This document shows, piece by piece, positions 1 through 59,600 of a DNA stretch of 64,000 nt (position 1 is its first letter; each line of letters opens with the position of its first letter). The DNA comes from a bacterium (GTDB lineage: Archaea; Nanobdellota; Nanobdellia; Pacearchaeales; GW2011-AR1). Location of the stretch: the NCBI GenBank assembly GCA_036833455.1, contig DAITPU010000001.1:7549-71548 (forward strand). The letters run 5' to 3'. Under the pieces are notes generated by a model. That model saw nothing but the letters and a program-made list of their open reading frames with translations, had not been told where the DNA came from and ran no database searches. The position numbers and the translations under genes were made by a program.

Positions 1-2900
1 TGCCGTCGTAGAATCATTCAAATCAAAAGGTAAATTCAAAACAGCCCAAGAGGTTCCATTCAACCTCCAATCTGTAATATTATAAATTAAATCTTCATCT
101 AAATCTGTTGAATTAGAAATATAAACACTCAAATTTTCAAAAGTAGTATTAGTTCCCGAAGAGGAATTTAAAATAACTATTGGAAAAGTTGGAGCGCTAT
201 TAACTTGTTCACCTAAGATAGTCAAATTAGAACTTAAAACTGAAGTTCCTTCCGAAGAAAAATTAGTTGGAGTTACCATTACTGACCAATTTTCTCCAAC
301 TGAAGTTTCTTGCGAAACAATTGTTTCGATTGATTTATTATTTAATCCAGCTTGATAAATAGCACTAATTTGTTCTGCTGAAAGTGCTTCATCAAATATC
401 ATTACTTCATCTATTGAACCATTAAAATAATTACCTGCTGCATTAAATGTAGCAAAAAGTAAATTATTGGTAGATTTCCCGACAGAAAAACTTTTACTTA
501 AAGAAAAAACATTACTTCCATCTAAATAACCTTCCCACTTACTTCCATTATAAGAATAAACTATATGGTGCCAATTTGTATCTGAAAGAGTTATTCCAGA
601 ACCAGTTCGAGGATTATCTCCTGTATAAACCCCAGAATAAAATTCAACTTGATTATTTACATACTCCCAAATTAAAGAATAAACATTATCTGTTCCAGCA
701 TCATTCCTTTTAGATAAAAGATATCTATTAGTTTGACTTAAATCGCTAGGTTTAATCCAAAGTGAAAAAGCAAAATTATTTGTTAAATTTAAAGTTCCAT
801 TATAAGGAACGGTAATATAATCCCCTCCATCAAAATTGTAACATCCTCCCACTTTACAATTTGAACTCCAAGTTGGTTTTGCAGTTGATGAAGCCAGAGT
901 TCCATTATTTCCATAAGTTGAATAATCTTTTGCCGTCGTAGAATCATTCAAATCAAAGGGCATATTCAAAACTGCCCAAGAGGTTCCATTTAATCTCCAA
1001 TCTGTAATAGTTGCATTCGTATCAGTTGAAGAAATATACGCCGTTAAATTTTCATTAGTAGTATTAGTTCCCGAAGAGGAATTTAGAATTACTGAATTTA
1101 TTATTGGATTTCTTACTAAATCCAAAATAGTCAAATTAGAACTTAAAACTGAAGTTCCTTCTAAACTTAAATCTGTGGGAGTGGATCTAACTGACCAATT
1201 TTCTCCAACTGAAGTTTCTTGCGAAACAATTGTTTCGATTGATTGATTATTTAATCCAGCTTGATAAATAGCACTAATTTGTTCTGCTGAAAGTGCTCTA
1301 TTGAAGATCATAAATTCATCAATTCTTCCTTTAAAATATTTTTCACCATTATTAGCTTGATCTGCCGCTCCTATTTGATGGCTTGTATAGGTTCCAGACC
1401 AATCAAGAGTAATATTTCCGATAGTATTATTTGCTACACGAGAACCATTAAAATAAATTTTCATTTCATTTCCATCATAAGTTACCACAAGATGATGCCA
1501 TTGATTAGTTGAAGGGAGAGAAGCCGGATTCCATGCACAAGAATATCTAGTAGTAGAACTATGTAAATCATAATATATCGTGTTTAAACTTCCCCAACTA
1601 CTTATTGCAATACCTCCATCATAATTGTTGTTAGTAAGATGTTGCCCCCCATAAAAACCAGGATAAGTGTTTTGAGACCAATTTGAAGAATTTATCCACA
1701 TCACAATTGAGTGAGGTCCTGTTTGTCTAGCTGAATCTGGAAGAGTTATTTTATCGTTACTTCCATCAAAACTATAACATCCTCCAACCTTACAATTTGA
1801 AACCCAGGTTGCTCCACTTACAGAACCATTATTACTCAATGTAGAATAATCTTTAGTTACACTAGAATTTTCTAAATCAAAGGGCATATTCATCGCTGCC
1901 CAAGAAGCACCGTTTACTCTCCAATCCGTAATCGTTGAATTTGAATTAGTTGAATTTATATATGCGGTTAAATTCTCATTAGTAGTATTAGTTCCCGAAG
2001 AGGAATTTAGAATTACTGAATTAACAGTAGGGATTCCTACAAAATTTTCATAAGGTAAAACATTTCCTGAATTGTAAAGAGTTTGAATTTCCGATAAACT
2101 TAACTCTCTATTCCAAATTGCCCATTCATCATAATCTATATTTATTACGGCCCCCCCTCCAAGCAAACCAAGATTTGCATTAACTGTAGTTGCACCGCTT
2201 GTAGTCCTATTATAAGCTGAAACTGCATTAACATAAAGTTTTACATGGCTTGAACTATTCATTGTAATAACCACATGATACCATGTGTCTGCAGAAAAAT
2301 TTACTGAAGATGAATATTGAACCCAAGTTCCACTTGGCCTATCAGTAACATAAAAAACATAATTAGCTCCATCCAATTTAGTTCCTACAAAAAAGTTTAG
2401 ATTAGCTGCATTATTTGCATATTGCCCCCAAAATGCTCCTGGATTAGAATTATTACTCCTAACCCAAAAACTATGTGTAAAAGCTGAAGTTCTACTCTGT
2501 AATGCCCCTAAAGCAAGTCCTTGGTCATTAGTATTTCTTCCTCTAATTCTTAAAGCATTATTTTCTTTTCCACTAATCCAACTATATGTAAAAATAGCAG
2601 TTCTATTATCTGAAGCATGACTATCATATGCAGTACTTCCACTTGATTCATCTAACTTCCAATAAGAAACTAATCCGTTAGTTAAATTATATGAAGGATC
2701 AACAGCCAAATCACTAACAACTCTACTCTCGTCGGCAAAACTAAAATTCAAAACAGCGTATCCTGCTATATTCATAAATGAACTAAACTCTCCTGTATCC
2801 AAACAAGAATAATTTTCAACAAAAAATTTCAAAGGCTTAACACTTTCATTTATTTCCGAATATTTTAAAATTTCTTCATTTTCAGTAATAATATACAAAT
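1..2900 (-). repeat. In-frame tandem DNA repeats of about 910-930 bp (at least 3 copies) inside the giant surface-protein gene
   Basis: Exact 27-mer tgccgtcgtagaatcattcaaatcaaa occurs at 1 and 931. The 44-mer ttctccaactgaagtttcttgcgaaacaattgtttcgattgatt occurs at 291 and 1201. tattagttcccgaagaggaattta occurs at about 150, 1062 and 1985. Each unit encodes one LamG-like module. Confidence 0.8.
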
Positions 2901-4644
2901 CATCAATTAAATTTTCCTCTCCACACTTCAAATTTAAAAATTCCATTTCATCTTCAGTTTCTAAATTATCCTTAGGAATTTCTTCAAAAAATGCATTAGG
3001 AGAATAAATTGTTAAATTTCCAACTCCAGTAGTATTAAAATAAACTTTCCAAAGATCTCCATCTTTCAAATATTCTAAAGGATTCAAAACAGTTATAGTA
3101 ATTTCAAAAGTTTGATTAGAAAGATGAGGTGCAATCCACTCAACATAATCATAAAGCCCGTTTCCATTTAAATCATAAAACTCGTAACTCTCAATATATT
3201 TCTCTTCTTCCACCCAATAAATCTTAAATTCTGTTCCTTCTCTAAATTCTAATTCTTTTGAAATTTCTGCAAAAACTAAAACATTTTCATAATGAATATT
3301 TTCCGGTCCAACAATTTTTACAATTTTTCCTTTAGAAGTTTCTTCTTCCAAAGAATAAGGAGCAGGAGTTTCATATTCAATAACAACTAATTCTTTAGTA
3401 TTGTCAAGAACTAACTCCAAAGAGTTCTCTCTTTCCAAAATTTCAAATTCTTCTCCGACAGAAAAACCCGTAAAAACAAAAATCTTAGAAAAGAAATTTT
3501 TAATTCCCTCAAAAAAACCCTCTCCAGATTCAGAAATAGAATATCCCGTTAAAAAACTTCTAGAAGTTTCACCTTTTTCTCTAAACATTTCTTGATTATA
3601 ATCTTCTAACTTGTCTTCTATCTTTTCTGCCTTCGTTCCAGTTTTAATTTCAATTTTTTCAGAGTTAATAGGAATTTCAACTTTAACTTTTGTAGAATTT
3701 ATTTCCTCTAAATTTATTTTTTTAACCCAACGAACAGGTTTTCCTAAAACAATATTTGAATTAAGAGTTTCAATACTTTCATTATTCAGACCAAAAATTT
3801 CTTCTTCCAAAAGAGTTTCATTTAATTCAGATTCATTTAAGTTTTCATCTAATTCAGTTTGATTTAAACTTTCATTAAGTTCGGTTTCATTTAGTTGAAA
3901 TTCTTCTAAAGTTTGATTTACTTCAGTTTGATTTAAATTTTCTTGAAAAGAACTTCCCCCAGAACTAAAATCAAAGTTATTTTCTGTTTCCTCTAAAGGT
4001 TTTTCAGGAATAAACTCTGAATCATTAATTGAAATATTTTCAAGAATCTCAATTTCTCCAGAATCATTTAAAATTTCATCTTCAAATCCACTCTCTTTCA
4101 TTTCTTGGTTATCTTCAGTAATATCTCCTTCTACTTTTTCTTGAGTACTCTCTCCTTCTACTCCTTGAAAAACTTCCTCAGAATCTTCCTCAGAAATTTG
4201 TTCTTCTAAGTCAAGATTAGGGTTTTCATCAGAAACTTCATCTGAAGTAATCTCTTCTTCTACATTCCCTTCTTCTGAATTAGAAAAAGATTCATCTGTT
4301 AAACTCTTACTTCCGGTAGATATCTCCCTTTCAGAAGAAACTCCTTCTGAATCTTCTACCATAAAACCAGTTAAAGAAGAATAACTTTTAGAAATAGAAT
4401 CAAAAATTTTTTCAAATCCCAATTTTTCTTTATCAAAAGAATTTTCTCCGTAAGAAATAAAAGAAAAAACTCCTAAAATCAGGATTACACTACATAAAAA
4501 AATTAAAAAGAAGGGAGTTTTTTTCTTGGGTTTATAATCTTTTAAATATTTAGAAACAATATTCCCCTCTGAATCTCTATAGCTTTCATAATAGTATGGT
4601 CCAAAAACTTTATCTCCTCTTTTAATATACCTTTTATACACCAT
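1..4644 (-). CDS. Giant secreted or surface protein, 3'-partial (more than 1540 aa in window). It has an N-terminal TM anchor, an acidic NETELNE-type low-complexity linker and at least 3 tandem LamG/concanavalin-like jelly-roll modules.
   Basis: Manual reverse-complement translation from ATG at 4644 (MVYKRYIKRGDKVFGPYYYESYRDSEGNIVSKYLKDYKPKKKTPFFLIFLCSVILILGVFSF...) reads without stops to the window start. Repeated modules contain W..HHLVVTYDGNEMKIYFNG...IDEFMIFNRALSAEQISAIYQAG, typical of the Laminin_G_3 / concanavalin-like fold. It is not in the ORF track because it runs off the edge. Confidence 0.75.
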   Translation of the reverse strand, partial: MVYKRYIKRGDKVFGPYYYESYRDSEGNIVSKYLKDYKPKKKTPFFLIFLCSVILILGVFSFISYGENSFDKEKLGFEKIFDSISKSYSSLTGFMVEDSEGVSSEREISTGSKSLTDESFSNSEEGNVEEEITSDEVSDENPNLDLEEQISEEDSEEVFQGVEGESTQEKVEGDITEDNQEMKESGFEDEILNDSGEIEILENISINDSEFIPEKPLEETENNFDFSSGGSSFQENLNQTEVNQTLEEFQLNETELNESLNQTELDENLNESELNETLLEEEIFGLNNESIETLNSNIVLGKPVRWVKKINLEEINSTKVKVEIPINSEKIEIKTGTKAEKIEDKLEDYNQEMFREKGETSRSFLTGYSISESGEGFFEGIKNFFSKIFVFTGFSVGEEFEILERENSLELVLDNTKELVVIEYETPAPYSLEEETSKGKIVKIVGPENIHYENVLVFAEISKELEFREGTEFKIYWVEEEKYIESYEFYDLNGNGLYDYVEWIAPHLSNQTFEITITVLNPLEYLKDGDLWKVYFNTTGVGNLTIYSPNAFFEEIPKDNLETEDEMEFLNLKCGEENLIDDLYIITENEEILKYSEINESVKPLKFFVENYSCLDTGEFSSFMNIAGYAVLNFSFADESRVVSDLAVDPSYNLTNGLVSYWKLDESSGSTAYDSHASDNRTAIFTYSWISGKENNALRIRGRNTNDQGLALGALQSRTSAFTHSFWVRSNNSNPGAFWGQYANNAANLNFFVGTKLDGANYVFYVTDRPSGTWVQYSSSVNFSADTWYHVVITMNSSSHVKLYVNAVSAYNRTTSGATTVNANLGLLGGGAVINIDYDEWAIWNRELSLSEIQTLYNSGNVLPYENFVGIPTVNSVILNSSSGTNTTNENLTAYINSTNSNSTITDWRVNGASWAAMNMPFDLENSSVTKDYSTLSNNGSVSGATWVSNCKVGGCYSFDGSNDKITLPDSARQTGPHSIVMWINSSNWSQNTYPGFYGGQHLTNNNYDGGIAISSWGSLNTIYYDLHSSTTRYSCAWNPASLPSTNQWHHLVVTYDGNEMKIYFNGSRVANNTIGNITLDWSGTYTSHQIGAADQANNGEKYFKGRIDEFMIFNRALSAEQISAIYQAGLNNQSIETIVSQETSVGENWSVRSTPTDLSLEGTSVLSSNLTILDLVRNPIINSVILNSSSGTNTTNENLTAYISSTDTNATITDWRLNGTSWAVLNMPFDLNDSTTAKDYSTYGNNGTLASSTAKPTWSSNCKVGGCYNFDGGDYITVPYNGTLNLTNNFAFSLWIKPSDLSQTNRYLLSKRNDAGTDNVYSLIWEYVNNQVEFYSGVYTGDNPRTGSGITLSDTNWHHIVYSYNGSKWEGYLDGSNVFSLSKSFSVGKSTNNLLFATFNAAGNYFNGSIDEVMIFDEALSAEQISAIYQAGLNNKSIETIVSQETSVGENWSVMVTPTNFSSEGTSVLSSNLTILGEQVNSAPTFPIVILNSSSGTNTTFENLSVYISNSTDLDEDLIYNITDWRLNGTSWAVLNLPFDLNDSTTA

Positions 4645-4719: not shown

Positions 4720-5904
4720 TCACCTTGTAATAATTTCTAAAGAATCCCTATGTTTTAAAAGATAATCTTTGCCTAAGGCCATTTTTGTTTTTGCATTAAT
4801 TGCTTTTATAAAATTTTTACCAAAATCAGTGTGTAAAAAATAAGCAAAATCTAAAGCAGTCGAACCTTTTGGAAGTAAAAAACAATCTGGGAGTATATTC
4901 CCTTTTGAATCTCCCAATTTATTTGCAGAACCCGGAAAAATAGCCAAATAACCTAATAAATCAAAAACAACCCTATTCAAAATTTCCTGGATTCCTGTTC
5001 CAAATTCATACTTCTCTAAAACATCTCCTTTTATTTTATTTAATGCTTCTACTTGTTTTTCTCCTAAATCTTTCAAAACTTTAAACGCTCTTTCACCAGG
5101 AATATAATCTATTAAACCCGCCTTAGATGCTTGTCTAAGTGCAAGTTCAGAATCTGCAGAACAAGGAATAAAAATTAAATGAGGAAATTCTTTAATCACT
5201 CTTTCATAATTTTCTCTTCCAGAGGCAATATCTATTTTATTTGCAGCAACAATCATTGGTTTAGAAATATGCCTTAACTCCGTTGAAAAAACCTTTAATT
5301 GGTTTTCATTCCAATTAGAGCATCTTGGGGGAAGATTTAACTTTGAAAGAACTGCTTTAACTTGTTCTTCATTAACTTTTAAACCCGAAAATTGTCTTGC
5401 AATAGCTTCTGAAAGTTTTTGCCCTTCCATATCTACTTTTCTTGAAAAACCCGGCCAAACTTTCATTAAAATATTGTAATACCAATTAGTCAATTCTTCT
5501 TCTAAAAATTTAACATCTTCTGAAGGATTATGATTTTCAGTAGGTTTTCCTTCTAAATCTGTAGTTCCAGAAATATCTACAATATGTATAAAAGCGTCCG
5601 CTTGTCGAAGATCATCTAAAAATTTATTTCCTAATCCTTTTCCTTCCGAAGCCCCGGGAACTAATCCCGCAACATCCATTAAATCCACTGGAACAAATCT
5701 ATTTGAATTTAAACAAAATCCATGATTAGGATTGCACTTAACTCCAAAATCTTTATCGATGCATTCAACTTTAACATAACCAACACCATGGTTTGCTTTT
5801 ATAGTTGTAAAAGGATAAGAAGCAATTTCAACTTCTGCTAAAGTGGCTGCTTTAAAAAAAGTGCTCTTTCCAACTGAAGGTTTTCCAACTAATCCTAATA
5901 ACAT
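4720..5904 (-). CDS. OBG/HflX-superfamily GTPase (YchF/DRG-like) with a C-terminal TGS domain
   Basis: G1 GKPSVGKST is at the N-terminus and G4 is NKID. There is a large insertion between G3 and G4. The C-terminal TGS-like segment reads GSTALDFAYFLHTDFGKNFIKA. Confidence 0.7.
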   Translation of the reverse strand: MLLGLVGKPSVGKSTFFKAATLAEVEIASYPFTTIKANHGVGYVKVECIDKDFGVKCNPNHGFCLNSNRFVPVDLMDVAGLVPGASEGKGLGNKFLDDLRQADAFIHIVDISGTTDLEGKPTENHNPSEDVKFLEEELTNWYYNILMKVWPGFSRKVDMEGQKLSEAIARQFSGLKVNEEQVKAVLSKLNLPPRCSNWNENQLKVFSTELRHISKPMIVAANKIDIASGRENYERVIKEFPHLIFIPCSADSELALRQASKAGLIDYIPGERAFKVLKDLGEKQVEALNKIKGDVLEKYEFGTGIQEILNRVVFDLLGYLAIFPGSANKLGDSKGNILPDCFLLPKGSTALDFAYFLHTDFGKNFIKAINAKTKMALGKDYLLKHRDSLEIITR

Positions 5905-5941: not shown

Positions 5942-7387
5942 TTAATCTAATTTAGGAATTTCTATAGAATCCCGTGAAATCTTACGGGCAACCGCAGCTT
6001 TTTTGATTTGCTCTTCCTTCTTTTTATTAAAAATTATTATTGGTCTATTGAATTTTGAATAATGTAATTTCCAAATTACATAAAATAAGATTAGAGAGAG
6101 AAGTAAAACGACAATTATCCAAGATAAAAGAGAAACAACTTCTACAGCAAAAGTATCATAACTACTTGCAGTTACATTTCCTGGAGCTAAAATACGAGTA
6201 TAGAAAAGATAATTCCCAATAGGAATATCCTTAGGCACATCTATATAAAAGACCCCATTATGAGTTCTATTTATTGCAAAATCTTCTTTTTTAATAGTAT
6301 ATTCTTTACCCTCAAAATCTACAATTTTATAAATAAACTCTATATCAAAATTTCTAAGTTCTCCCATATTAATCATGCTAACTTGTGCACGAACTCTTCC
6401 TCCGGGATTTATATATTTTTTAATAACTTCTGTTCTTATATCAAATAAAGCTCCTCTATCTTTAACATCCAAAATAATTCTTACTTGTTGTTCAAAATCT
6501 TCAGATTTGAATAAAATGTATCCAACATAAACATCAGCATAAACTCTATTAGAAATATAAATATCTAAATTTAAAGTTACATTTTCTCCTGGATAAACAA
6601 GTACATTTTTAGATTCCGGAAAAACAAAATCACTAACTCCGAAAACATAATTTTGAATTTCAAAAGAACTTGAACCATTATTTACAATAGTTAATTCTTT
6701 TTTAAAATAAGTTCCTTTATCCATCTTAAATGGAATAAAATCTGGGACAAGATAGAATGTTTTTTGTGAAGGAACGACTCCCGGAGGAGAATCCCCTCCA
6801 CCACCGCCCCCTCCTCCTGAAGGAGGAGTTGGAGGAGTTACTGAACAATCTGCAGGACAAGATGCAGCGGTTTCTCCAGGTTCACAAACTCCATTTCCAC
6901 ATACATAAACAGGAGGATCATATATTTCAACTACACTTGAATTAACCCAGTCAGAAAAAGAACTTCCAGAATAAAACTGAACAGAACATTTCCAAGCATT
7001 TCCCGAAGATAAATTTCCATTTCCTAAAACACTTGAAAAAGTACTTCCATTAACATAATTGTTACTAAAATTTTGACTAAAATTAAGAATATCCCATTTA
7101 TACCAACGAACTGAAACATTAACTTTAGTTTTAGAAGAATCAGAAATAAATGCGGAACAACTTAAATCTATATTTGATTTATTTGAACCATCTAAAGAAA
7201 CTAAATTCACATTTAAAGGATCACTTAATTTTGAAATCAAGCCTAAATCAAAAAAAAATCCTTCTATATTTGATCCAGGATTTATTATTAAATTATTATC
7301 TCCTCCTGAATTTATAGAGATTATATCTGCAGAAACAATTGAAAAAAAAATTAAAGAAAATATCCAAAAATAAAGAAATCTTTTCAT
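5942..7387 (-). CDS. Secreted surface protein with signal peptide, Cys motif CGNGVCEPGETAASCPADC, a poly-Gly/Pro linker, CARDB-like beta domains, and a C-terminal TM anchor with a basic tail
   Basis: The N-terminus is hydrophobic. It has GGGGGGGG and a PTPP linker. The C-terminus reads LLSWIIVVLLLSLILFYVIWKL followed by KKKEEQIKK. It forms an operon-like tandem with the two downstream genes. Confidence 0.5.
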   Translation of the reverse strand: MKRFLYFWIFSLIFFSIVSADIISINSGGDNNLIINPGSNIEGFFFDLGLISKLSDPLNVNLVSLDGSNKSNIDLSCSAFISDSSKTKVNVSVRWYKWDILNFSQNFSNNYVNGSTFSSVLGNGNLSSGNAWKCSVQFYSGSSFSDWVNSSVVEIYDPPVYVCGNGVCEPGETAASCPADCSVTPPTPPSGGGGGGGGDSPPGVVPSQKTFYLVPDFIPFKMDKGTYFKKELTIVNNGSSSFEIQNYVFGVSDFVFPESKNVLVYPGENVTLNLDIYISNRVYADVYVGYILFKSEDFEQQVRIILDVKDRGALFDIRTEVIKKYINPGGRVRAQVSMINMGELRNFDIEFIYKIVDFEGKEYTIKKEDFAINRTHNGVFYIDVPKDIPIGNYLFYTRILAPGNVTASSYDTFAVEVVSLLSWIIVVLLLSLILFYVIWKLHYSKFNRPIIIFNKKKEEQIKKAAVARKISRDSIEIPKLD

Positions 7388-7388
7388 T

Positions 7389-10300
7389 TTAACTTATTTT
7401 GATTTTTCCTCCGGAAGCTATATATAAAATTGAATCGATAGGGGGATATCCCATATTTTTTGTGTAAATAGTTGAATTGATCGTACAATTTCCTATTCCA
7501 GAAAAAAATAATTTATTCAAACCTAAATTCGTATTTAATGAAATTATACAAAAGTCCCCCATAGAAATATTCCAATCTCCAGAACCAGAATAAATACAAC
7601 TATCAAAGGAAAGTATTCTTTTTGTAGAACTATTAACCCAAGAAGAATTATAAGTTCCGTCGGAAGCTAAACAACTAAGAATCCAATCTTGACCTGCAGA
7701 AGTATTTTCACTAGATATATTTGCAACATTAACTTCAAAACTTTCAGAATATTCTCCAATATTTCCACTTAGATTTTCAATTCCATCCACATACCATTTA
7801 TAATGGTAGGTTAAATTCTGTTTTTCTATATCTGTCGCGTTACAATACCCTCTAAGAGTATCATTATAGTAAGAAAAAAGAGGTAAAATTAAAGAAGAAA
7901 CGATAAACGGATTTGGAGAATTTATCAAAACAGAATTTGATTGAACTCTATAATTATTATCAAAATCTTCATTAGTGGGAGTAACTCCGGCAATCCAAGT
8001 TTCACCTGGGGAAGTGTGAACATTCTCCAATATATCTAAATCTTTTGCTCCCATCCCGTACCAATATAATCTTTCAATTTCTGAAGGAGTTAAAGTCAAA
8101 TTATAAATTACAAATTCATCTAATTGACCAATAAAATACCCCCATCCTCCTGCATCTCCTCCTAAAGTCAAACTTGAAGAAGGGATTGTTCCCACCCAAC
8201 CAGATTCAACTGCCGAATTTTCTTGAACTCCATCTACATAAAGAGTAAAATTATTTTCTGGTTTATCATAAGTTAAGAGAGCATGATGCCAGTTTGTTAT
8301 TGAAGATCCATTACCATTAACTTGACTTGTATTTACTAAACTTGTTCCTAATAAACTAAATCTATCTGAAATTATAAATCTTATTTTTCCAGAACTAATT
8401 TCAAAATGAAATCCATCATATCCTCCATCATCACAAACTCCTTCCTCACACATTGCAAGAATTGTTCCAGAATCAGAATAGGTATTTATCCAAAAAGATA
8501 AACTAAAACTCTGGGCATACAAATCGAAATCATTCATAGTTGTATTTATGTAATCATTTCCATCAAAACTATAAGCTCCTCCAACCTTTCCTTCCTTAAC
8601 CCAAGTCGCTCCGTGTATACTTCCGTCGTATCCATTAAATCCATAATCCTTAACTGAAGAAGAATCATTCTTGTTAAAAGCGTATTTTATTATCTCAACA
8701 CCTCTTCCAGAGTTATCCCAATCACTAACATAAGAAACAGCATTTTCAGGATAACACTGACCAACTGAAGAACTTGTGTTTCCCGTATAAAAATTTGAAA
8801 TTTTAAGTGCATCAGTAGCAGAAATATTTCCACTATTATCCCAATCTCCGCAACATAAATGAACATTTTCATCATAACAAGATATTATTTCAACAAAAAT
8901 AGCTTGTGCTAAAAAAGAATCTTCACTATCTATCTTTCCATCTCCATTCAAATCTCCTTTCAACTGACCAGGACGACAAACAACTTCACAACTTGAACTA
9001 TCAGCATCTTCCAAATAATCAAAATGTAAAGTTAAATTATCCGTAGTAAAGTTGTAAGAGCTCGTAGTGTTTAAATAAGGAACTAAAGGGAAATAAATTC
9101 CTTTAACAGAACTATTCAACCAAGAAGAATTATCTTCTCCATCATATGCTAAACAACTTAAAATCCAGTTTTCACCTGAAGTTGTTAAAGAGCTAGAGAT
9201 ATTTGCAACATTTATCTCGGCTCCAGAAGCATGACCTCCCGCCGTAACTCCTGAACTATTTAAAACATTATTCTTATACCAAGAATAGTAATAAGTTAGC
9301 GTATCTCCATCGGCATCGGTTGCATTACAATATCCTTTAAGAGTATCAGAAGAATATCTTATCGAAGGTAAAATATTTGATTCAATAATAATTGGAGGTA
9401 CATTGCTTATAGTTAAAACAGAACTATTAACCCAAGAAGAATTTTCTAAAAAATCAGAAGCGAGGCAACTTAAAGTCCAATTCTCTTCTTTTGATGTGAT
9501 TGAACTTGAAACATTTGCAACATTTATTTCAGCTCCCGAAGAATAATTTCCTTCTTTTTTACCAGAAAGATTCAAACTTCCATTTTTATACCAAAGATAA
9601 TAATAGGTTAAATTATTATCCTCTAAATCACTTGCATTACAATATCCTTTAAGAGTATCATTCGTATAAGCTACGGAAGGAAATATTGTAGAATTTTCCA
9701 TCTCTGGAGCATTATTATAAATAAAAGGGTATGTGAGAGGATCCCCTTCATTCCAGATAAGTTCAAACTCTTCAAAATCCATAGAATAATTATCATAAAT
9801 TCCAAAATAATCTATCTTTGAACCATTTAACGAATAATCTTGTTCTGAAATTTCTTGATCTGGATTATTTATTCTTAACCCTATATGGTTTTTATAATTA
9901 GAATAATTTAAGGAATTATTCCCATTGTATTCCTGAGTTTCATTTAAAACATTTTCTTCATTAGCAATAAAAATTTTTCCAACCCCATAATCATCTCCAT
10001 AAGCTTCTCTAGAAAATCCAATTAGATTCCAAGTTCCCAATTGAACAGAATTTGTAGAAGTATAAATTCCGCTTTCCGGACCATCTGGATAAACTGCAGA
10101 TGAATTACCGCTGACTAACCTACCAGAAATAGTTCTATCTGTATTAATCCATAATCCAAAACCTACATTTAAAGAATCTTCTCCCTCTGAATTAAAACCA
10201 TCATCCAAAATCCAAATTTCTTTATCTAAAGATTCTGGAACATAAACCAAAGCTAAGTAACTAAAATGGGTTCCGGACATGACCCAAAAATTTTCTTGAC

Positions 10301-10622
10301 TTCCAAAATCCACATAATTTTCTCCATCAAATTGAATTGCCCCATTTACTAATCCTTCACTCCAAAGACTATCTTTTGTTAATTCTCCATTAAAATCTTC
10401 TTTTATTAAAGCATTAACTTCAATTCCTGAACTTTCATTAAATTCATAAAAAGCAACCAATTTGCTACTAGAATTCAAATAAAGAGCAGGATATGCCGGT
10501 AAATTTCTTTCCTCTCCAAAAATTCCAAAAAAACTTCCTCCATAAGAAGGATTAATTATAAAAAAAAATATTCCCAAGACAGAAATTATTCCTAAAACAA
10601 AAAGTAAAATTTTTTTTTTCAT
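7389..10622 (-). CDS. 1077-aa secreted surface protein with an N-terminal LamG-like domain, three PKD-like repeats, a canonical dockerin, a second LamG-like domain and a fourth PKD-like repeat
   Basis: It has a signal peptide. The dockerin has two Ca-binding loops, DLNGDGKIDSED and DWDNSGNISATD, each followed by a helix. The LamG-like motif is WHHALLTYDKPENNFTLYVDG...LDEFVIYNLTLTPSEIERLY. A roughly 80-aa unit YSSDTLKGYCNATD...NWILSCLA.D is repeated three times, with a fourth copy near the C-terminus. NxS/T sequons are very frequent. Confidence 0.7.
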   Translation of the reverse strand: MKKKILLFVLGIISVLGIFFFIINPSYGGSFFGIFGEERNLPAYPALYLNSSSKLVAFYEFNESSGIEVNALIKEDFNGELTKDSLWSEGLVNGAIQFDGENYVDFGSQENFWVMSGTHFSYLALVYVPESLDKEIWILDDGFNSEGEDSLNVGFGLWINTDRTISGRLVSGNSSAVYPDGPESGIYTSTNSVQLGTWNLIGFSREAYGDDYGVGKIFIANEENVLNETQEYNGNNSLNYSNYKNHIGLRINNPDQEISEQDYSLNGSKIDYFGIYDNYSMDFEEFELIWNEGDPLTYPFIYNNAPEMENSTIFPSVAYTNDTLKGYCNASDLEDNNLTYYYLWYKNGSLNLSGKKEGNYSSGAEINVANVSSSITSKEENWTLSCLASDFLENSSWVNSSVLTISNVPPIIIESNILPSIRYSSDTLKGYCNATDADGDTLTYYYSWYKNNVLNSSGVTAGGHASGAEINVANISSSLTTSGENWILSCLAYDGEDNSSWLNSSVKGIYFPLVPYLNTTSSYNFTTDNLTLHFDYLEDADSSSCEVVCRPGQLKGDLNGDGKIDSEDSFLAQAIFVEIISCYDENVHLCCGDWDNSGNISATDALKISNFYTGNTSSSVGQCYPENAVSYVSDWDNSGRGVEIIKYAFNKNDSSSVKDYGFNGYDGSIHGATWVKEGKVGGAYSFDGNDYINTTMNDFDLYAQSFSLSFWINTYSDSGTILAMCEEGVCDDGGYDGFHFEISSGKIRFIISDRFSLLGTSLVNTSQVNGNGSSITNWHHALLTYDKPENNFTLYVDGVQENSAVESGWVGTIPSSSLTLGGDAGGWGYFIGQLDEFVIYNLTLTPSEIERLYWYGMGAKDLDILENVHTSPGETWIAGVTPTNEDFDNNYRVQSNSVLINSPNPFIVSSLILPLFSYYNDTLRGYCNATDIEKQNLTYHYKWYVDGIENLSGNIGEYSESFEVNVANISSENTSAGQDWILSCLASDGTYNSSWVNSSTKRILSFDSCIYSGSGDWNISMGDFCIISLNTNLGLNKLFFSGIGNCTINSTIYTKNMGYPPIDSILYIASGGKIKIS

Positions 10623-13250
10623 TTAAGCGCTACAAATTGAACCTCCACTGGAAAAGATTATACAATTATCCACCGTTACATTTCCTGAAAGAGTAGATGT
10701 TGAAGTTACTTCAAAAGTTCCATTAACATGAAGGGTTTTAGAAGGTTTGTTGTGATTTATTCCCACTCTTGCATTATCAAACTGACCATAAATCAAAGGA
10801 ATTGAATTCACATTTGCTTGATGAAGAATAAATACATTTGAAGCGGTATTCCCATAGCCTGCTTGATAACCCAAAGCAATTACATTATTTCCTGAATTAG
10901 AATAAAGAGCTTCATCCCCTATAGAAATTGTTTTACTTCCCAAATTATAAGCTCCAGAATAATAACCAAAAGCAACTTGATTATCCCCTTCATTAGAAAG
11001 CCCGGCCCCATATCCAAAAGCGGATTGGTAATCTCCTAAGTTATACCTTCCTGAAGAAATTCCAAATGCACTTTGCCATGATGCTTTATTAGAAGACCCA
11101 GAATAATAACCAAACGCTGTTTGTTCAAAAGAACTTTCATTTCCTGCTGCTGCTCCCCCGAACGTATTCGTATATGAATTAGAAGTTCTCAAAATAGGAA
11201 TTCCTCCTTGCATATAAGAATATCCGTCTGGAATATTCACACTTCCTGCAATAACATCTAATTTATGTGAAGGTGCTCCTCCAATACCTATATTCCCTGA
11301 TGCTCCTTGATAAATTTCAGAATTGTTTAGAGAAGAAGTTCCATTCCATAAAGGAATTCTCATTGAAGTTCCTGCTCCAGAAAGATAAGTAGGAATCGTA
11401 CTTGAATTATAAAATCCGTAAGGATTTACTAAAGGATAGTAATTAGCTAAAGAAGAATTGAAAGCTAAAGTTCCATTGTAAGCTAATGGATCTGATTCAG
11501 AAGTTAAAAAACTTGAAGTATCAATAGACCAATTAGCTATCAATCCTGTTGAATTCCAATCTTTAATTAAACCTGATGAATTATATTGATGATAAGTTGA
11601 ATTATAAGTAGAACTCCAAGATGAATTATACAAACTAAAATTTCCGCTCCAGAATGGATCTGTTTCTGTATAACTTTGTAAATATCTGTCATCACTTTGT
11701 GTTTTGTTATAAAAAGTGTCATTAATCCAAGCATCTTCATAATTTCCAACGGGCAAAGTTGTAGAATTATAATATCCGAATGGGTTGCTTGTTAAATATA
11801 AGCTTCCATTGTAAGCTAATGAATCTGTTTCAGAAGTTAAAACTCCACTTAAACAATTTCCTCCTTCAATACAAATATCTCCCGTAGAATTTATTGATCC
11901 AGACACTCCTAAATTATTTCCAACATAAGCATTTCTACCTAAATATAAATCTCTCCACCTTAAACTAGAATTTCCTAAATCAAACTGATTATGATAACCT
12001 ATTTCTGGAACAAGGGATCCATTAATCTGAAGATTATTTACTGAAATAGAATTTAATGTATAAAAATAACCCGTTTGAGCATATATAGCTCCTCCAATAA
12101 TGCTTAATCCATTTGAAGTCCACCCCCCATTAAAATCAAATTGTCCGAAAACCGAATTATTCAAAGGCATAAAAAAACTAGAATCATAACCATCCAATTT
12201 ATCTGTATCTAAAAAACTATCACTCCAATTAATTATCAACCCTGTTGAGTTCCAATCTTTAATTAAACCTGATGAATTATATTGATGATAAGTTAAATTA
12301 TAAGTAGAACTCCAACTCTCATTATAAGCTGTAAAATTAGAAGCCCATAGTGGGTCTATTTCTGTATAACTTTGTAGGTATCTATCATCACTTTGTGTTT
12401 TATTATAAAAAGTATCATTAATCCAAGCATCGTCGTAACTTCCGACGGGCAAAGTCGTAGAATTATAATATCCATAAGGATTATTTATTGAATAATATAA
12501 ACTATCTGCATAAGTTTTGTTCCATGAAAACAAAGATAAATAATTTGAATAATTAGAAGTCCATAATGGATCTGTTTCTGAAGTTAAAACTCCACTTAAA
12601 CAATTTCCTCCTTCAATACAAATATCTCCTGTTGCATTAATAGTTCCATTTGATAAAATATCTCCTGCCACATGCAATAATCTCTGAGGAGAATTAGTTC
12701 CAATTCCCACATTTCCTGAAGTAAAAAAAAGATTTCCTCCATTCAGCTCCCAATAATTAATTTGACTTAAATTAATTGCAGAAGTATTAATGTCTGTCAA
12801 ATACCTTCCGCTTCCCAAAAAATAAAAAGCACTCAAATTATAAGTTCCAAAATTCAAAGAAGAATCAATTTCTATTCCAGAACTGTTAACATATTTAGAA
12901 CGAAAAGAGTAAGGCGTCCTAGAAATTTTAGTTGAATTTATTAAAGATCCATTACGATAATAACACAAATAATATTGTTGATCATAATTTAAATTAGTAT
13001 TTTGAAGATAGTAAGAAATAATCCCTCTGGAATCGGTAGTTAAAGTTTCAGAATCAGAATAGATAACATTCAAACAATTCGAATCTGTAGTAATATTAAA
13101 AACAAAGTTATATGTTCCAGCTAAAATATTGCCTTCTGAATCAGTTGTCTGAATATTCAAATGAAGTTCATCTAAAATTTCTGCTGAAGAAGTAAAACTA
13201 ATAAGAAAAAAAATCAAAAATAAACCCAGGAAATACCTCTTTGTTACCAT
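10623..13250 (-). CDS. 875-aa secreted, heavily N-glycosylated surface protein with an internal duplication of about 240 aa and C-terminal YadA-head-like repeats
   Basis: It has a signal peptide. The GDICIEGGNCLSGVLTSETD...WINDTFYNKTQSDDRYLQSYTE block occurs twice. SAFGY.AG..N.G.NQVAFGYYSG...VIALGYQAG repeats resemble the left-handed beta-roll head of trimeric adhesins and phage fibres. More than 60 NxS/T sequons are present. Confidence 0.6.
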   Translation of the reverse strand: MVTKRYFLGLFLIFFLISFTSSAEILDELHLNIQTTDSEGNILAGTYNFVFNITTDSNCLNVIYSDSETLTTDSRGIISYYLQNTNLNYDQQYYLCYYRNGSLINSTKISRTPYSFRSKYVNSSGIEIDSSLNFGTYNLSAFYFLGSGRYLTDINTSAINLSQINYWELNGGNLFFTSGNVGIGTNSPQRLLHVAGDILSNGTINATGDICIEGGNCLSGVLTSETDPLWTSNYSNYLSLFSWNKTYADSLYYSINNPYGYYNSTTLPVGSYDDAWINDTFYNKTQSDDRYLQSYTEIDPLWASNFTAYNESWSSTYNLTYHQYNSSGLIKDWNSTGLIINWSDSFLDTDKLDGYDSSFFMPLNNSVFGQFDFNGGWTSNGLSIIGGAIYAQTGYFYTLNSISVNNLQINGSLVPEIGYHNQFDLGNSSLRWRDLYLGRNAYVGNNLGVSGSINSTGDICIEGGNCLSGVLTSETDSLAYNGSLYLTSNPFGYYNSTTLPVGNYEDAWINDTFYNKTQSDDRYLQSYTETDPFWSGNFSLYNSSWSSTYNSTYHQYNSSGLIKDWNSTGLIANWSIDTSSFLTSESDPLAYNGTLAFNSSLANYYPLVNPYGFYNSSTIPTYLSGAGTSMRIPLWNGTSSLNNSEIYQGASGNIGIGGAPSHKLDVIAGSVNIPDGYSYMQGGIPILRTSNSYTNTFGGAAAGNESSFEQTAFGYYSGSSNKASWQSAFGISSGRYNLGDYQSAFGYGAGLSNEGDNQVAFGYYSGAYNLGSKTISIGDEALYSNSGNNVIALGYQAGYGNTASNVFILHQANVNSIPLIYGQFDNARVGINHNKPSKTLHVNGTFEVTSTSTLSGNVTVDNCIIFSSGGSICSA

Positions 13251-13773: not shown

Positions 13774-13894
13774 TGATCCTGCTGAGATTTGAACTCAGGA
13801 CCTCTGGCTCTCTTAGAAAGCTCCAAGAGATAGCAACCCTAACGAATTACTTTCTTATAAGACCAGCGCTCTAACCAGGCTGAGCTACAGGATC
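13774..13894 (-). tRNA. tRNA-Ile (anticodon UAU) with a 47-48 nt intron 3' of the anticodon; CCA not encoded
   Basis: Manual cloverleaf on the minus strand reads GATCCTG-TA-GCTC-AGCCTGGTTA-GAGC-G-CTGGT-CTTATAA-[intron GAAAG..AAGAG]-GCCAG-AGGTC-CTGAG-TTCAAAT-CTCAG-CAGGATC-A. All stems pair. Confidence 0.7.
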
Positions 13895-33967: not shown

Positions 33968-34113
33968 TCCATCCACCCAGATTCGAACTGGGAACCTCTC
34001 GGGCACTGCTATGCCTTTTAGTTCTTGACTTTTAGGGTTTCATCGTATATCTTACTAGACACTCCGCCTTAGGATATCTACAGCCAAGCGCTCTGCCATT
34101 GAGCTATGGATGG
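33968..34113 (-). tRNA. tRNA-Tyr (anticodon GUA) with the archaeal/eukaryal C1-G72 pair and an intron of about 74 nt
   Basis: Cloverleaf reads CCATCCA-TA-GCTC-AATGGCA-GAGC-G-CTTGG-CTGTAGA-[intron]-CCGAG-AGGTT-CCCAG-TTCGAAT-CTGGG-TGGATGG-A. Confidence 0.7.
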
Positions 34114-47287: not shown

Positions 47288-49024
47288 TTACTCTAAAACA
47301 GCCTTTATTCTCCTAACTCCAGAAGAAGAACTTTCTTCTTTTTTTATCTTAAATTTTCCCAATACTTTTATATTTTCCACATGAGGGCCAGTACAAATTT
47401 CCTTCGAAATTTTTCCAATAGTATACACAGAAACCTTATCTCCGTATTTTGTTTCAAAAACTCCTTCTGCTCCGTATTTTCTGGCTTCTGACAAAGACAT
47501 TTCTTCACGCTTTACTGGCAATTCTTTTCTAATATTTGAATTAACTTCTTCTTCAATTTTTTTTATTTCTTCATCTGTTAATTTCCTATCAAAATTAAAA
47601 TCCAATCTTAACCTTTCTGGAGTTATATTTGAACCCTTCTGATGAATTGAAGAATCATTTAAAATTTTCTTTAAAGCTGCTAAAAGAAGATGCGAAGCGG
47701 TATGCAATTTAGTTGTCTTTTCAGAATCATCTTGTAATCCAGATTTAAATTTTCCAACAGAAGCTGTTCTTGAAAGTTCTTGGTGTTTTTCTAACTCTTT
47801 TTCAAAATCAGAAATATTCACTCTTATATTTTTTTCTTTTGCTAATTCTTCTGTTATTTCTATTGGGAACCCATAAGATTGAAATAAAAGAAAAGTATTT
47901 TTTCCAGAAATTTCTTTTTTATCTTTAATTATTTTTTTGAATACATTCAATCCTCTTTCTAAAGTTAAATTAAACTTTTTTTCTTCCTGTTCCAATTCTT
48001 GTAAGATTTTATCTTTATTTTCTTCTAAATGTTTGTAATCCTTGTAAATTTCAAATACGGGATATGCCACTTTTTTAGTAAAATCTTCAAGTCCAATTAA
48101 TTTTCCATAACGGATAGCTCTACGAATTAACCTTCGTAAAATATATCCTTGTTCAGTATTACTTGGTCTAATTCCATCTGCAATTATAAAAATTGAAGCT
48201 TTGATGTGGTCTGCAATTATCCTCATTTCCCTCTTATTTTCAGAATATGATTTATTTGATAATTTTTCAATCTCCTTGATTATTGGTTTCCAAACTTCAG
48301 TAAGATAATTATCGTCAAATCCTTGAAGGATTGCAATTGTTCTTTCAACTCCTCCTCCAAAATCAATATTTTTTTGCTTAGCTTTTAGATAACCTTCCTT
48401 ATTTTTTACATATTCCATTAAAACATCGTTTCCTAATTCAACCCAATTTTTTTCATCTTTTGGATCAAAAATTTCTGGAGCAGGAGTATTTAATTTCCAG
48501 TAAAAAATCTCCGTATTTGGCCCACAAGGTCCTGTTTGTCCTGCAGGTCCCCACCAATTTTCTTCAAGCAAGACTATTCTTTTTTCTGGAATACCTAAAT
48601 TTTTCCAAATTTCAATAGATTCTAAATCTCTTGGAGAATTTTTATTGCCCTTAAAACAAGTAACTGCCAACTTATTAAGCGGAATTTTCAGAGTTTTCGT
48701 AAAAAATTCGAAAGTTAATTTTATGGCTTCAGATTTCCAATAATCCCCCAATGACCAATTACCCAACATTTCAAAAAAAGTGTGATGATATGCATCTCCT
48801 ACCTCCTCTATATCGACAGTTCTTATGCACTTCTGAACATTAACTAATCTCTTTCCTGATGGATGATTCTGCCCCAATAAATACGGAACAATTGGTTGCA
48901 TTCCTGCGATTATAAATAAGACCGTTGGATCATTTTCAGGAATTAAACTATAGTTAGGAATTTCCTCATGGCCTTTTGATTTAAAAAAATCTATGTACTT
49001 TTTTATTAATTCTTTTCTTTTCAT
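47288..49024 (-). CDS. alaS: Alanyl-tRNA synthetase, unusually short (578 aa, catalytic plus editing motifs, no extended C-terminal domain)
   Basis: HTFFEMLGNWSLGDYWK and NDPTVLFIIAGMQ are catalytic-core motifs. TASHLL (HxxxH) and CTGPHV (CxxxH) are editing motifs. Confidence 0.8.
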   Translation of the reverse strand: MKRKELIKKYIDFFKSKGHEEIPNYSLIPENDPTVLFIIAGMQPIVPYLLGQNHPSGKRLVNVQKCIRTVDIEEVGDAYHHTFFEMLGNWSLGDYWKSEAIKLTFEFFTKTLKIPLNKLAVTCFKGNKNSPRDLESIEIWKNLGIPEKRIVLLEENWWGPAGQTGPCGPNTEIFYWKLNTPAPEIFDPKDEKNWVELGNDVLMEYVKNKEGYLKAKQKNIDFGGGVERTIAILQGFDDNYLTEVWKPIIKEIEKLSNKSYSENKREMRIIADHIKASIFIIADGIRPSNTEQGYILRRLIRRAIRYGKLIGLEDFTKKVAYPVFEIYKDYKHLEENKDKILQELEQEEKKFNLTLERGLNVFKKIIKDKKEISGKNTFLLFQSYGFPIEITEELAKEKNIRVNISDFEKELEKHQELSRTASVGKFKSGLQDDSEKTTKLHTASHLLLAALKKILNDSSIHQKGSNITPERLRLDFNFDRKLTDEEIKKIEEEVNSNIRKELPVKREEMSLSEARKYGAEGVFETKYGDKVSVYTIGKISKEICTGPHVENIKVLGKFKIKKEESSSSGVRRIKAVLE

Positions 49025-56658: not shown

Positions 56659-59600
56659 TTAAATGGAAGAACACAGTTGACCTGCATAACCTGTGTTTGG
56701 ATAACCTACAAAATATCTCATTACTAAAAGAGAATCTGCAGAATTTATTGTTCCATCTCTATTAACATCCAAACAACAAATATTATTTGGAGTTGGAATA
56801 AGTTGAACAAAAACTTTGCTTATTAAAAGTGCATCTGCAGAATTTATTGCTCCATCTGCATTAGCATCTCCTATTAAAGATGAAGAAAAGCATTGTACTT
56901 CTGGGGAAAGTAAAGGATTATTTTTTTCATATTTTCCTGTATGTTGTAAATCATGCATAAACATTGGCCAATCTATCCTTGATTCATTATATAAAACACT
57001 TAAATTCCAAGCATAAATTTTAGTTTTGGGGTAGGAAGCTCCAAGAACTAAATCTAAAAAATCATCTTTATCTAAATCACTAACAATTAATCTATCTGAA
57101 GTTCCAAAAAAATAACCCGAAATTGGAGATTGAATAAAAGAACCAAATCTATCATATATTCCTAAACTAGGTCCAGAAACTATGATTTCTCTATAGTGGT
57201 CTCCATTTATATCTGCTATGATTGGGGAAGAATAACTAAAATCTCCTGTTTGAATTAAAGATTTATTAAAAATTAAATTCCCTTCATAATCAAAAGAATA
57301 AAGTATAAAATAAGGCTGTTGAATCTGTGAAACTAATGTTATTACTTCTAATTTTCCATCTCCACCTAAATCTCCTACTGAAGGACCTGAAGTAATTCCT
57401 CTGATATTTTCTTCAAAAGTATATGGCCACCCTGAAAAAATTGTTCCATTATAATTCCAAACATACAATTTAGAAAAATTTGGATCTGAAAAAATTCTCA
57501 AATCCCCCATAATAATCTCTAATTTTCCATCTCCATCTAAATCTCCTATTGCGGGAGAATTTAAAAAAGCATTTTCCGAATATTGAGGCCATCCATTAGC
57601 AATAGTCCCATTATGATGCCAAACATAAATAATACCATTATAATTTTCAAAAGAAGATGAATAATAGGGGAACCCCATTACAATTTCTGAATTTCCATCT
57701 CCATCTAAATCTCCTATTGCAGGATAGGAAATCTTATCCCACTGCATCATGAAATTTGGTTCTCCTATTTCTTGCGGCCATCCCGAAAGAGAATTACCAT
57801 AAATATCAAAAATATACACTACCTTATCGGTAGTTATAACAAAATCTCTTTTTCCATCATTATTAATATCAGCTAAGGATAAAGAAGAACTAAATTCTTC
57901 AGAATAAATACCAGAAAAATCCCAATAGTTAACAAGAGTTCCGTTATAACTAATAGCATAAATATAAATTCTGCCTAGTCCACTTATCAAAACTAAAACT
58001 TCTTCAATATTATCCCCGTTAATATCTTCTGAAGTCAATAATAAAGGACCATTACCCAAACTAGTATTTATCAAAAATGGCCAACCAGAAAGTGTTTCTC
58101 CTTCATAATTCAACAAATTTATTTGTTGATTTAATGAAGATCCGAAATAAGAATTAAAAAGTATTTCTTTATATCCATCTCTATTTAAATCTACAACAAC
58201 TGGCCAAATTTCACTTCTAATATTTGAATTTCCTTGAAATTCGACTTTTCTAGGCCATCCCTCTTTTAAGGTTAAATCTAAATAAATAGGAAAAGATATA
58301 GAAAAAGAATCAAAAAAACTACTAAAACTGAAAATCAAAAGATAATATCCTTGGTTGAAACCAGAAGTATTCCAAACTGCAAAAGAATCATTCAAAATAT
58401 TTATACCTTGATAAGAATGAGGGGTTGATCCAAAATAAGAAATATTCGAAAGATTATAATACGGATTTAAAATATTCCACTTAAGATTAATTTGATCTCC
58501 AATTCTATAAATTTCTGAAAAATCTGGATTAAGAATTTCTACGTTCTTTATTTTGAAAAATCCAAAATCTTTACTTTGAATAGAATTATTTCCATAAACA
58601 GATAATTTAAGATTATAAATTCCTTCTTTTAAAACATTGGGATCAAAATTAGAGCATAAAACACCTTCATCAACAACATTATTTCCAGAACATATTAAAT
58701 TCCAAGTATTGCTATCAGAAGAATAAAAAACAGAATAAGAATAAAAATCATCTCCTTTTGCACTACCCAAAATATTCATTTGGCCTGATGGAAGATAATC
58801 TATTTCATTTAAAGAAGCTATCAAAGGTTTACTAAAATTTAAAGAAGAACGAACATTTATTCTTCCTTGGCCTTGATCTTTAATTCCAGCTCCATTTAAA
58901 TTCTGTGCAGAATTTTTTAAAACCATTTTAATTTCTTCTGGAGACCAATCTGGATGAGCTTGCTTGATTAAAGCTACTGCTCCTGCAACATGGGGAGTAG
59001 CCATACTTGTTCCGGGAATTGAAGTGTGTTGATTATCAATACATTCTCTATCGCTCCAAGCATCATTCCATTGAGCTGCACAAATTCCTTGAGAACTAAA
59101 AAATCCATCTCCAGGAGCAACAACATCTGGTTTAGATAAGGACTTTATTTTTCCTTGAGCATCTTCCCAAAGAACCGGCCCTCTAGAAGAAAAGGACGCC
59201 ATTAAATCATTCTTATCCGAAGCACCTACACTAATTGCTTTTCTGGAAGTAGCAGGAGAACCTATAGGTCCATTCCAAAGTCCATCATTTCCTACAGCAA
59301 TTACTGCAATTACTCCTGCACTTACAACGTTATCTATAGCTTGACTAACAGGATCATCTGGATTTCCTTGACCTCCCAAACTCAAACTTATAATATCCAC
59401 ATAATCATTTTCATCTTCCAAGGGTATTCCATTGTTATTCAAATCTACTGATCTTTCAATAGCAGAAATAACATCGGAAAAATCTCCCCCTCCTGCCGAA
59501 CTTAAAACTTTAAAACCATATAATTTTGCATCTGGAGCAACACCTTTTAAAATTCCCTTTCCTGCGGCAATAGAAGCACAATGAGTTCCATGCCCATTAT

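Follow-up and report, generated by a model that had tools for sequence, protein, structure and literature searches.

The 64,000-nucleotide window analysed here (positions 7,549–71,548 of contig DAITPU010000001.1, assembly GCA_036833455.1) opens inside a giant gene on its minus strand that encodes a surface protein with a tandem array of LamG modules. These modules are old duplicates in which the LamG domains, the heads of the modules, have diverged to saturation; they are not the result of fresh duplication. We read the gene product, with a probability of about 0.6, as a membrane-anchored, multivalent lectin-type adhesin whose old modules carry divergent heads on scaffold segments that would be kept alike by protein-level constraint together with gene conversion.

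That a large, partial LamG gene leaves the window had been predicted from the sequence, and this is borne out. The frame is stop-free for 1548 codons, from an ATG at 4644 to base 1, where the gene runs off the window with its C-terminal part outside. Pfam finds Laminin_G_3 (PF13385) in three stretches of the protein (218.7 bits against a cut-off of 27.6, E = 5e-65). The N-terminus MVYKRYIKRGDKVFGPYYYESYRD aligns with the extreme N-terminus of seven homologues of 1944–2644 residues (P0001–P0007), and since these open with the same motif, MVYKRY..G.K.GPYYY.(S/T)YRD, the start at ATG 4644 is confirmed.

Divergent LamG heads between conserved scaffolds

The maximal exact direct repeats in positions 1–3000 pair 1 with 931 (27 nt, clipped by the window edge), 142 with both 1057 and 1981 (29 nt each), 218 with 1127 (35 nt), 281 with 1190 (55 nt), 337 with 1246 (52 nt) and 1052 with 1976 (47 nt). 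Their spacings of 909, 915, 924, 930 and 1839 nt are all divisible by three. The longest tract measures 55 nt, whereas 200 codon shuffles of these 3 kb gave a mean of 12.7 nt and never more than 17 nt, and one 108-nt stretch between units contains a single mismatch. In blastn self-alignments, positions 1–432 match 931–1341 at 80% identity, 826–1121 match 1762–2045 at 76% and 9–178 match 1863–2017 at 70%, such that about 55% of each ∼920-nt period can be aligned as DNA, at 76–80% identity. Blastn finds no DNA-level match between the LamG cores, which make up about 400 nt of each unit (see Table 1 for their positions). Compared as protein, the whole of unit 1 is 55% (MAFFT) or 51% (tblastn) identical to unit 2. 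Tandem Repeats Finder, with a longest period of 500, reported short-period arrays only; the ∼920-nt period is outside its reach.

The original prediction of near-identical tandem repeats at 910–930 bp is therefore correct in part: the tracts are exact, in frame and far beyond chance, but the units that contain them are not near-identical. The exact tracts, given there as 27–44 nt long, reach 55 nt. Of the three pairs that it listed, 1/931 stands, while 291 pairs with 1200 instead of 1201 and 1062 with 1986 instead of 1985; the pairs as originally written have spacings of 910 and 923, which are out of frame.

The motif ILNSSSGTNTT at residues 878, 1186 and 1491 sets the starts of the three units. 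A codon-by-codon comparison divides the unit into a conserved N-side of about 90 residues (ILNSSSGTNTT.ENL..YI...ITDWR.NG.SWA.LNMPFDL...KDYS...SNCKVGGCY.FDG), a very divergent LamG interior of about 135 residues that contains indels, and a conserved C-side of about 75 residues (IDE.MIF..ALSAEQISAIYQAGLNN.SIETIVSQETSVGENWSV..TPT....EGTSVLSSNLTIL) that is followed by a short variable linker. The repeat had been described as one LamG-like module. There is indeed one LamG domain per period, but about 100 of the ∼305 residues belong to a second, small β-domain, the scaffold, which is present as an N-half and a C-half on either side of the LamG domain. The exact tracts lie in two cassettes. The junction cassette 931–1341 runs from the last LamG strands and the scaffold C-half of unit 1 across the linker into the scaffold N-half of unit 2 and holds the tracts of 27, 29, 35, 52 and 55 nt, and the N-side cassette 1762–2045 holds the 47-nt tract 1976/1052.

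When units 1 and 2 are compared, the N-scaffold has an amino-acid identity of 71% and a Nei–Gojobori synonymous divergence (dS) of 0.62. For the core these values are 27% and 1.20 (saturated), and for the C-scaffold 81% and 0.36. Between modules of different proteins the same three segments are 17–57%, 10–32% and 17–56% identical. The LamG cores of units 1 and 2 thus differ as much as the cores of different species (27–28% against 10–32%).

Next, the share of identical codons at positions with identical residues was compared with the expectation from the gene's own codon usage in 20,000 simulations, a test that is independent of protein constraint. The LamG cores of units 1 and 2 are at chance (18/33, with 20.1 expected). 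The C-scaffold has 49 identical codons out of 59 (32.5 expected), the N-scaffold of units 2 and 3 has 37 out of 43 (24.5 expected) and the window scaffold comparison as a whole has 68 out of 86 (47.9 expected), and none of these three values was reached in any simulation. Scaffold pairs of four relatives, used as a control, are at chance (28/51, 27/42, 16/31 and 32/61; P between 0.06 and 0.77). P0001 and P0003 show no similarity among their own modules at the DNA level. In P0002 the scaffold DNA of the two modules is 71–74% identical, with exact runs of at most 17 nt and codon identity at chance. Furthermore, the nearest relative of unit 2 changes along the N-half, for which 174 nt with 48 informative sites are available for all three units: on the 5′ side it is unit 1 and on the 3′ side unit 3 (maximum chi-square 13.9, permutation P = 0.002).

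Together, the saturation of the cores, the codon excess of the scaffolds, the control relatives and the switch in unit 2 indicate recombination between repeat units and argue against both a recent duplication of whole modules and selection by itself. We infer that neighbouring units have exchanged short patches of scaffold sequence by gene conversion. The likeness of the scaffolds would then have two components, a constraint at the protein level that is seen throughout the family and, in this particular gene, short-patch conversion between neighbouring units that would generate the exact in-frame tracts of 27–55 nt.

A lectin domain probably nested in a small β-domain, and its likely function

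Joining the non-LamG N-side (∼55 residues) and C-side (∼42 residues) segments yielded a spliced-scaffold hidden Markov model (HMM). Its halves match separately around every LamG domain in the homologues P0001–P0006, P0008 and P0024, as well as in the window protein from residue 874 onwards, with no match before that point. In a neighbouring open reading frame (ORF; 7389–10622) the same HMM matches contiguous domains of 75–92 residues, at residues 315–406, 423–495 and 926–1000. The contiguous copies pair end to end with the spliced halves (alignment A2) apart from 4–6 residues inserted where the halves are joined, and neither tryptophan varies. On the basis of this end-to-end correspondence between the flanking halves and the contiguous copies, a small β-domain of about 95 residues appears to carry the LamG jelly-roll as an insertion in one of its loops. 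No credible family was found in a Pfam scan of the spliced scaffolds and one contiguous scaffold domain. The AlphaFold2 model of unit 1, for which 12 homologous modules were used as input, is all-β with a predicted local distance difference test score (pLDDT) of 65 and a predicted template-modelling score of 0.75. Foldseek matches this model with probability 1.00 to concanavalin A-like jelly rolls, namely clostridial neurotoxin HCN, domain 4 of AbnA and the lectin domain of trans-sialidase.

In such an arrangement, the scaffold domains, linked one after another, would make up a stalk, and each of them would have its own, different LamG head budding from it. Each head would bind a different glycan or protein on the partner cell and so allow multivalent adhesion, and the divergence of the heads presumably reflects different ligand specificities. 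The giant protein is, judging from its domain content and from literature on other DPANN lineages, most likely a multivalent lectin-type adhesin for contact between cells, including with a host. This matters because DPANN archaea depend on physical contact with a host and host recognition is largely unknown. The head-in-scaffold module would provide the correct domain boundaries for expression and binding studies, and it explains DNA repeats at one-module spacing without recent copying. It also calls for caution when genomes are scanned: short, exact, periodic in-frame repeats can be the mark of conserved linkers that join old and divergent domains, without any fresh duplication or assembly fault.

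LamG-rich, sequon-rich surface proteins are proposed as host-attachment proteins of DPANN archaea in four papers (PMC7443923, PMC5498576, PMC10266531 and PMC7414124). As described there, the proteins of Nanohaloarchaeota, Micrarchaeota ('ARMAN' Mia14) and Undinarchaeota are likewise large and secreted or membrane-bound, with a single LamG domain or several. They also resemble the window protein in being rich in sequons, in having sequences peculiar to the organism, in being encoded near other surface-protein genes and in being predicted to attach the cell to a host. The window gene likewise lies in a DPANN genome and encodes an N-terminal transmembrane anchor and 61 sequons, about twice the expected number. 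These papers give domain content only, and the window protein is at most 31% identical to any named protein. A limited search of this literature found no mention of the nested scaffold-plus-LamG module or of the mosaic.

A putative resemblance to bacterial RTX (repeats-in-toxin) adhesins concerns architecture. In AhLap and FrhA a ligand-binding domain buds sideways, off the stalk axis, from a 'split' Ig-like domain (PMC12077191, PMC10865825), and the window protein would similarly have a β-domain interrupted by a lectin domain. Unlike these adhesins, the window gene is archaeal and its product is anchored by an N-terminal transmembrane segment, and whereas the RTX adhesins have a split unit once, near the tip, here the split units are tandemly repeated. 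No sequence relationship between the window gene and RTX adhesins was found. Pfam and NCBIfam identify no RTX family in the 1548 residues of the giant protein, and no RTX repeats, retention domain or type I secretion signal were seen there.

Two other classes of surface protein were considered and rejected. Periscope proteins are defined by repeats of more than 50 residues with at least 80% identity (PMC8201768). The window gene resembles them in encoding a surface protein built of long domain repeats in tandem, with tracts of DNA identity that could support intragenic recombination and length variation; its whole units are, however, 51–55% identical and the cores 27%, and only scaffold sub-segments reach 71–81%. 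The SPEARE or giant nanohaloarchaeal proteins exceed 5000 residues and combine Ig-like arrays with a VirB4/TraG-like ATPase. In the 1548 residues available no ATPase or protease family is found, and the orthologues of the window protein have 2.3–2.6 thousand residues.

The window gene is a modest and ordinary example of a widespread family: 32,630 cluster representatives match a profile of the composite module at E ≤ 1e-30, and the top matches are giant proteins with 8–20 matching stretches. One of them, MBI4146721.1 of a woesearchaeote (P0058; GCA_016203305.1, locus L005, 2001–20303), has 6100 residues with 12 tandem units, whose scaffolds have amino-acid identities of 0.73 and 0.60 and whose core has one of 0.23. 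Codon identity among these units does not exceed chance in the core and lies slightly above it in the scaffolds, and a 105-nt exact tract joins two adjacent units. As these 12 units have the same profile of conserved scaffold and variable core, the mosaic is a family trait. A second protein, MFC1685908.1 from Nanoarchaeota (P0067), has 4525 residues and eight matching stretches, some of them non-contiguous. The window protein shares with the LamG-array giants of Woese-, Pace- and Nanoarchaeota the same composite module over its full length (about positions 6–330 of the 340 in the profile), the scaffold motifs VILNS..G..NENLT, ITDWR.NGTS.AVLNMPF, LSA.QI..LY and ETIVS.E..VG.NWSV.VTPND, and the conserved-scaffold, variable-core profile; in these relatives β-helix repeats come next. 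It differs from them in the smaller number of units in its visible part (at least three) and in the N-terminal signal anchor and MVYKRY..GPYYY motif typical of its Pacearchaeota orthologues. Compared with those orthologues, in turn, its neighbouring units carry a stronger synonymous-site signal.

Competing histories of the repeat array

The exact in-frame tracts at one-unit spacing and the scaffold synonymous sites, which are far more alike than chance, are compatible with a recent tandem duplication of whole ∼920-bp modules into near-identical copies. The original prediction was of this kind, and it does not survive the comparison of the cores. The central ∼400 nt lacks any DNA-level match between units, and the cores differ by several indels in addition to their low amino-acid identity, saturated synonymous sites and chance-level codon identity. 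They are as unlike as cores from different species, and selection on the protein cannot erase synonymous likeness from the middle of a segment that was copied recently. This makes recent whole-module duplication highly improbable. Explaining the scaffolds by purifying selection on their residues and AT-biased codon usage, with no recombination at all, is unlikely, although the conserved scaffold and variable core are a protein-level pattern of the whole family and the biased codon usage raises the codon identity expected by chance to about 0.55. The codon excess is confined to the window gene and is absent from four relatives under similar constraint, and selection accounts neither for the switch in the nearest relative of unit 2 nor for the 108-nt stretch with its single mismatch.

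Slightly more weight, though this too is unlikely, goes to a history in which the scaffolds were duplicated fairly recently and other LamG cassettes afterwards took the place of the cores by recombination, with the scaffold tracts as homology arms. Such head swapping predicts the same mosaic as conversion of the scaffolds. In its favour, the sharp transitions fall within the first and last LamG strands, and the family displays many different heads on uniform scaffolds. On the other hand, blastn and tblastn searches with the units revealed no donor cassette in the 64-kb window, where the sole other composite module (in ORF 7389–10622) is 31% identical with a single DNA match of 55 nt at 80%. 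The scaffolds are also patchy (pairwise dS 0.36–1.09) rather than uniformly young, and those of relatives have no synonymous signal despite equally diverse heads. Targeted hypermutation of the LamG cores in recently duplicated modules by a diversity-generating retroelement, would concentrate variation in the ligand-binding domain of a surface protein as is seen here, and these elements are reported to be common in DPANN archaea. It is nevertheless hardly credible, and a classification of the giant protein as a variable protein of such an element was rejected: no reverse transcriptase was found in the 40 of 48 window ORFs of at least 120 residues that were scanned with Pfam, the window contains no template-like repeat and no second copy of either core, and the differences between the cores extend over about 135 residues and include many indels and all base types. 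That the array, or the number or order of its units, stems from mis-assembly of repeated or strain-variant reads is very improbable as well. The window does start within a conserved tract, its first 27 nt being an exact copy of 931–957, which is what a contig broken off at a repeat would show, provided that base 1 is also where the contig ends. But with exact tracts of at most 55 nt and units that diverge by 20–50%, reads of 100 nt or more bridge every tract, so that collapse of the array or artificial duplication is unlikely, and the suggestion that the repeats are an assembly hotspot is weak because the tracts are below ordinary read length. The frame is moreover open over all 1548 codons, every unit is a complete, well-scoring module, and many independent assemblies contain tandem arrays of this module.

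Several points weigh against the adhesin with old heads and converted scaffolds that we favour. The adhesin function is deduced from domain content and from literature on other DPANN lineages. The nesting of the LamG domain is read from sequence homology, and confidence in the unit 1 model is moderate (pLDDT 65). A third or more of the giant protein, at its C-terminal end, is missing from the window. The reverse history, recent duplication followed by replacement of the LamG cores through recombination, results in the same mosaic as conversion. Part of the DNA likeness of the scaffolds is due to protein-level constraint, as in P0002. Finally, the closest relative is 31% identical at best, and the collections searched hold no strain-level data. 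Exact searches with 50-nt stretches from the start of the window yielded no match in the genome_contigs and metagenome_contigs collections.

The number of modules differs at the species level between the window gene and its relatives: there are at least three composite modules plus a plain LamG domain in the window gene, two in the orthologues at loci L001 and L004, and one or two in other relatives. The 47–55-nt exact tracts and the 108-nt single-mismatch stretch could support in-frame gain or loss of whole modules. With the tracts at in-frame spacings, and with two modules in syntenic orthologues against at least three here, the originally suggested change in copy number driven by the repeats is plausible from the sequences at hand. 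A bolder proposal, to which we attach little probability, is that the scaffold tracts are a built-in recombination substrate through which unequal exchange would add, delete and reshuffle LamG heads in frame (by 909, 915 or 924 nt). If this is true, Woese- and Pacearchaeota would vary lectin heads on a constant stalk and thereby switch or broaden their host range, and archaea would have their own version of bacterial adhesin variation, one that works with cassettes and uses RTX-like split-domain units.

Layout of the giant gene and neighbouring genes

The features of the giant gene are collected in Table 1. The predicted transmembrane segment is the sole 19-residue window of the protein with a mean Kyte–Doolittle hydropathy above 1.6, and the inferred orientation has the N-terminal tail inside and the remainder outside. 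Immediately before this segment, a basic motif (MVYKRYI..G.K.GPYYYESYRD..G; window 4516–4644, residues 1–43) is conserved at the start of all giant Pacearchaeota homologues (P0001–P0007) and belongs to no Pfam family; it might serve in targeting or anchoring. Within the acidic spacer, a 27-nt (nine-residue) tandem repeat at 3816–3893 (2.9 copies, 80% identity) encodes repeated N-glycosylation sequons (...NQTELNESLNQTELDENLNESELNETL...). The 61 NxS/T sequons of the giant protein amount to 3.9 per 100 residues, with 1.9 expected from composition, and the protein is probably heavily N-glycosylated. The spacer is followed by a region of about 350 residues that is conserved in homologues and has no Pfam match. 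The plain domain LamG0 is matched weakly by the unit HMM (residues 716–860). NCBIfam returned only a sub-threshold match to TafC for the giant protein (96.7 bits against a cut-off of 410), which was not used.

Table 1. Features of the giant surface-protein gene (window coordinates; residues numbered from ATG 4644)
Feature	Position	Strand	Residues and description	Basis
Giant surface-protein gene, 5′ part	1..4644	−		Open frame; N-terminus aligned with homologues; upstream Obg-like GTPase gene
Single transmembrane segment	4447..4515	−	∼44–66, after basic 43-residue tail	Kyte–Doolittle
Acidic spacer	3745..4446	−	30% D+E, rich in NxS/T sequons	Composition
Plain LamG domain (LamG0)	2014..2697	−	∼650–877, without repeated scaffold halves	Pfam Laminin_G_3
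Repeat unit 1	1090..2013	−	878–1185 (308 residues): scaffold N-half, LamG, scaffold C-half, short linker	
Repeat unit 2	175..1089	−	1186–1490 (305 residues), architecture as unit 1	
Repeat unit 3	1..174	−	1491–1548, scaffold N-half only, clipped by window edge	
Divergent LamG core of unit 1	1333..1743	−	968–1104	No blastn match to unit 2
Divergent LamG core of unit 2	424..810	−	1279–1407	No blastn match to unit 1
Conserved unit 1/unit 2 junction cassette	931..1341	−		80% identical to 1–432 (unit 2/unit 3 junction)
Conserved N-side cassette of unit 1	1762..2045	−	Scaffold N-half and first LamG strands	76% identical to 826–1121

The best database matches of the giant protein are Candidatus Pacearchaeota proteins of 2000–2650 residues, with the same N-terminus and LamG modules and at most 31% identity. 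The remainder of the window is unremarkable archaeal chromosome, with genes for the thermosome, RFC, PolB, CDC48, FEN1, Rpb7, TFE and aminoacyl-tRNA synthetases and with overlong Rfam tRNA matches. These homologues, the synteny described next and the archaeal context place the giant gene in a Pacearchaeota-like DPANN archaeon. An Obg-like GTPase gene (4720–5904) lies upstream of the giant gene, as it does in L001 (P0003) and in L004 (P0002; Pacearchaeota, GCA_016201665.1). Because the same gene precedes all three, the giant genes of the window, L001 and L004 are positional orthologues. The orthologues of 2.3–2.6 thousand residues contain LamG domains, a β-helix and a conserved C-terminal domain. 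Immediately past the giant gene on its downstream side, the orthologous loci L001, L002 and L004 have a conserved trio of unannotated genes (∼200, ∼220 and ∼640 residues), with a PhageMetallopep-domain gene a few genes beyond it; the corresponding side of the window gene lies off the window.

Three adjoining minus-strand genes at 5942–13250 encode secreted, sequon-rich proteins of 481, 1077 and 875 residues, and together with the giant gene they are a surface-protein cluster. ORF 7389–10622 contains, besides its three contiguous scaffold domains, one composite LamG module (residues ∼627–907) and a borderline match to dockerin. At 56659–60591, also on the minus strand, a secreted protein of 1310 residues combines a subtilase (S8) domain with an I9 inhibitor propeptide, FG-GAP repeats and a C-terminal dockerin.

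Rfam matches to tRNA at 13774–13894 (121 nt) and 33968–34113 (146 nt) on the minus strand are long compared with the 71-nt model, and ARAGORN misses the second; both are probably intron-containing archaeal tRNAs. The alanyl-tRNA synthetase ORF at 47288–49024 on the minus strand has 578 residues and is shorter than a typical alanyl-tRNA synthetase, with the core and the second additional domain present, and may be a reduced DPANN form or a split gene.

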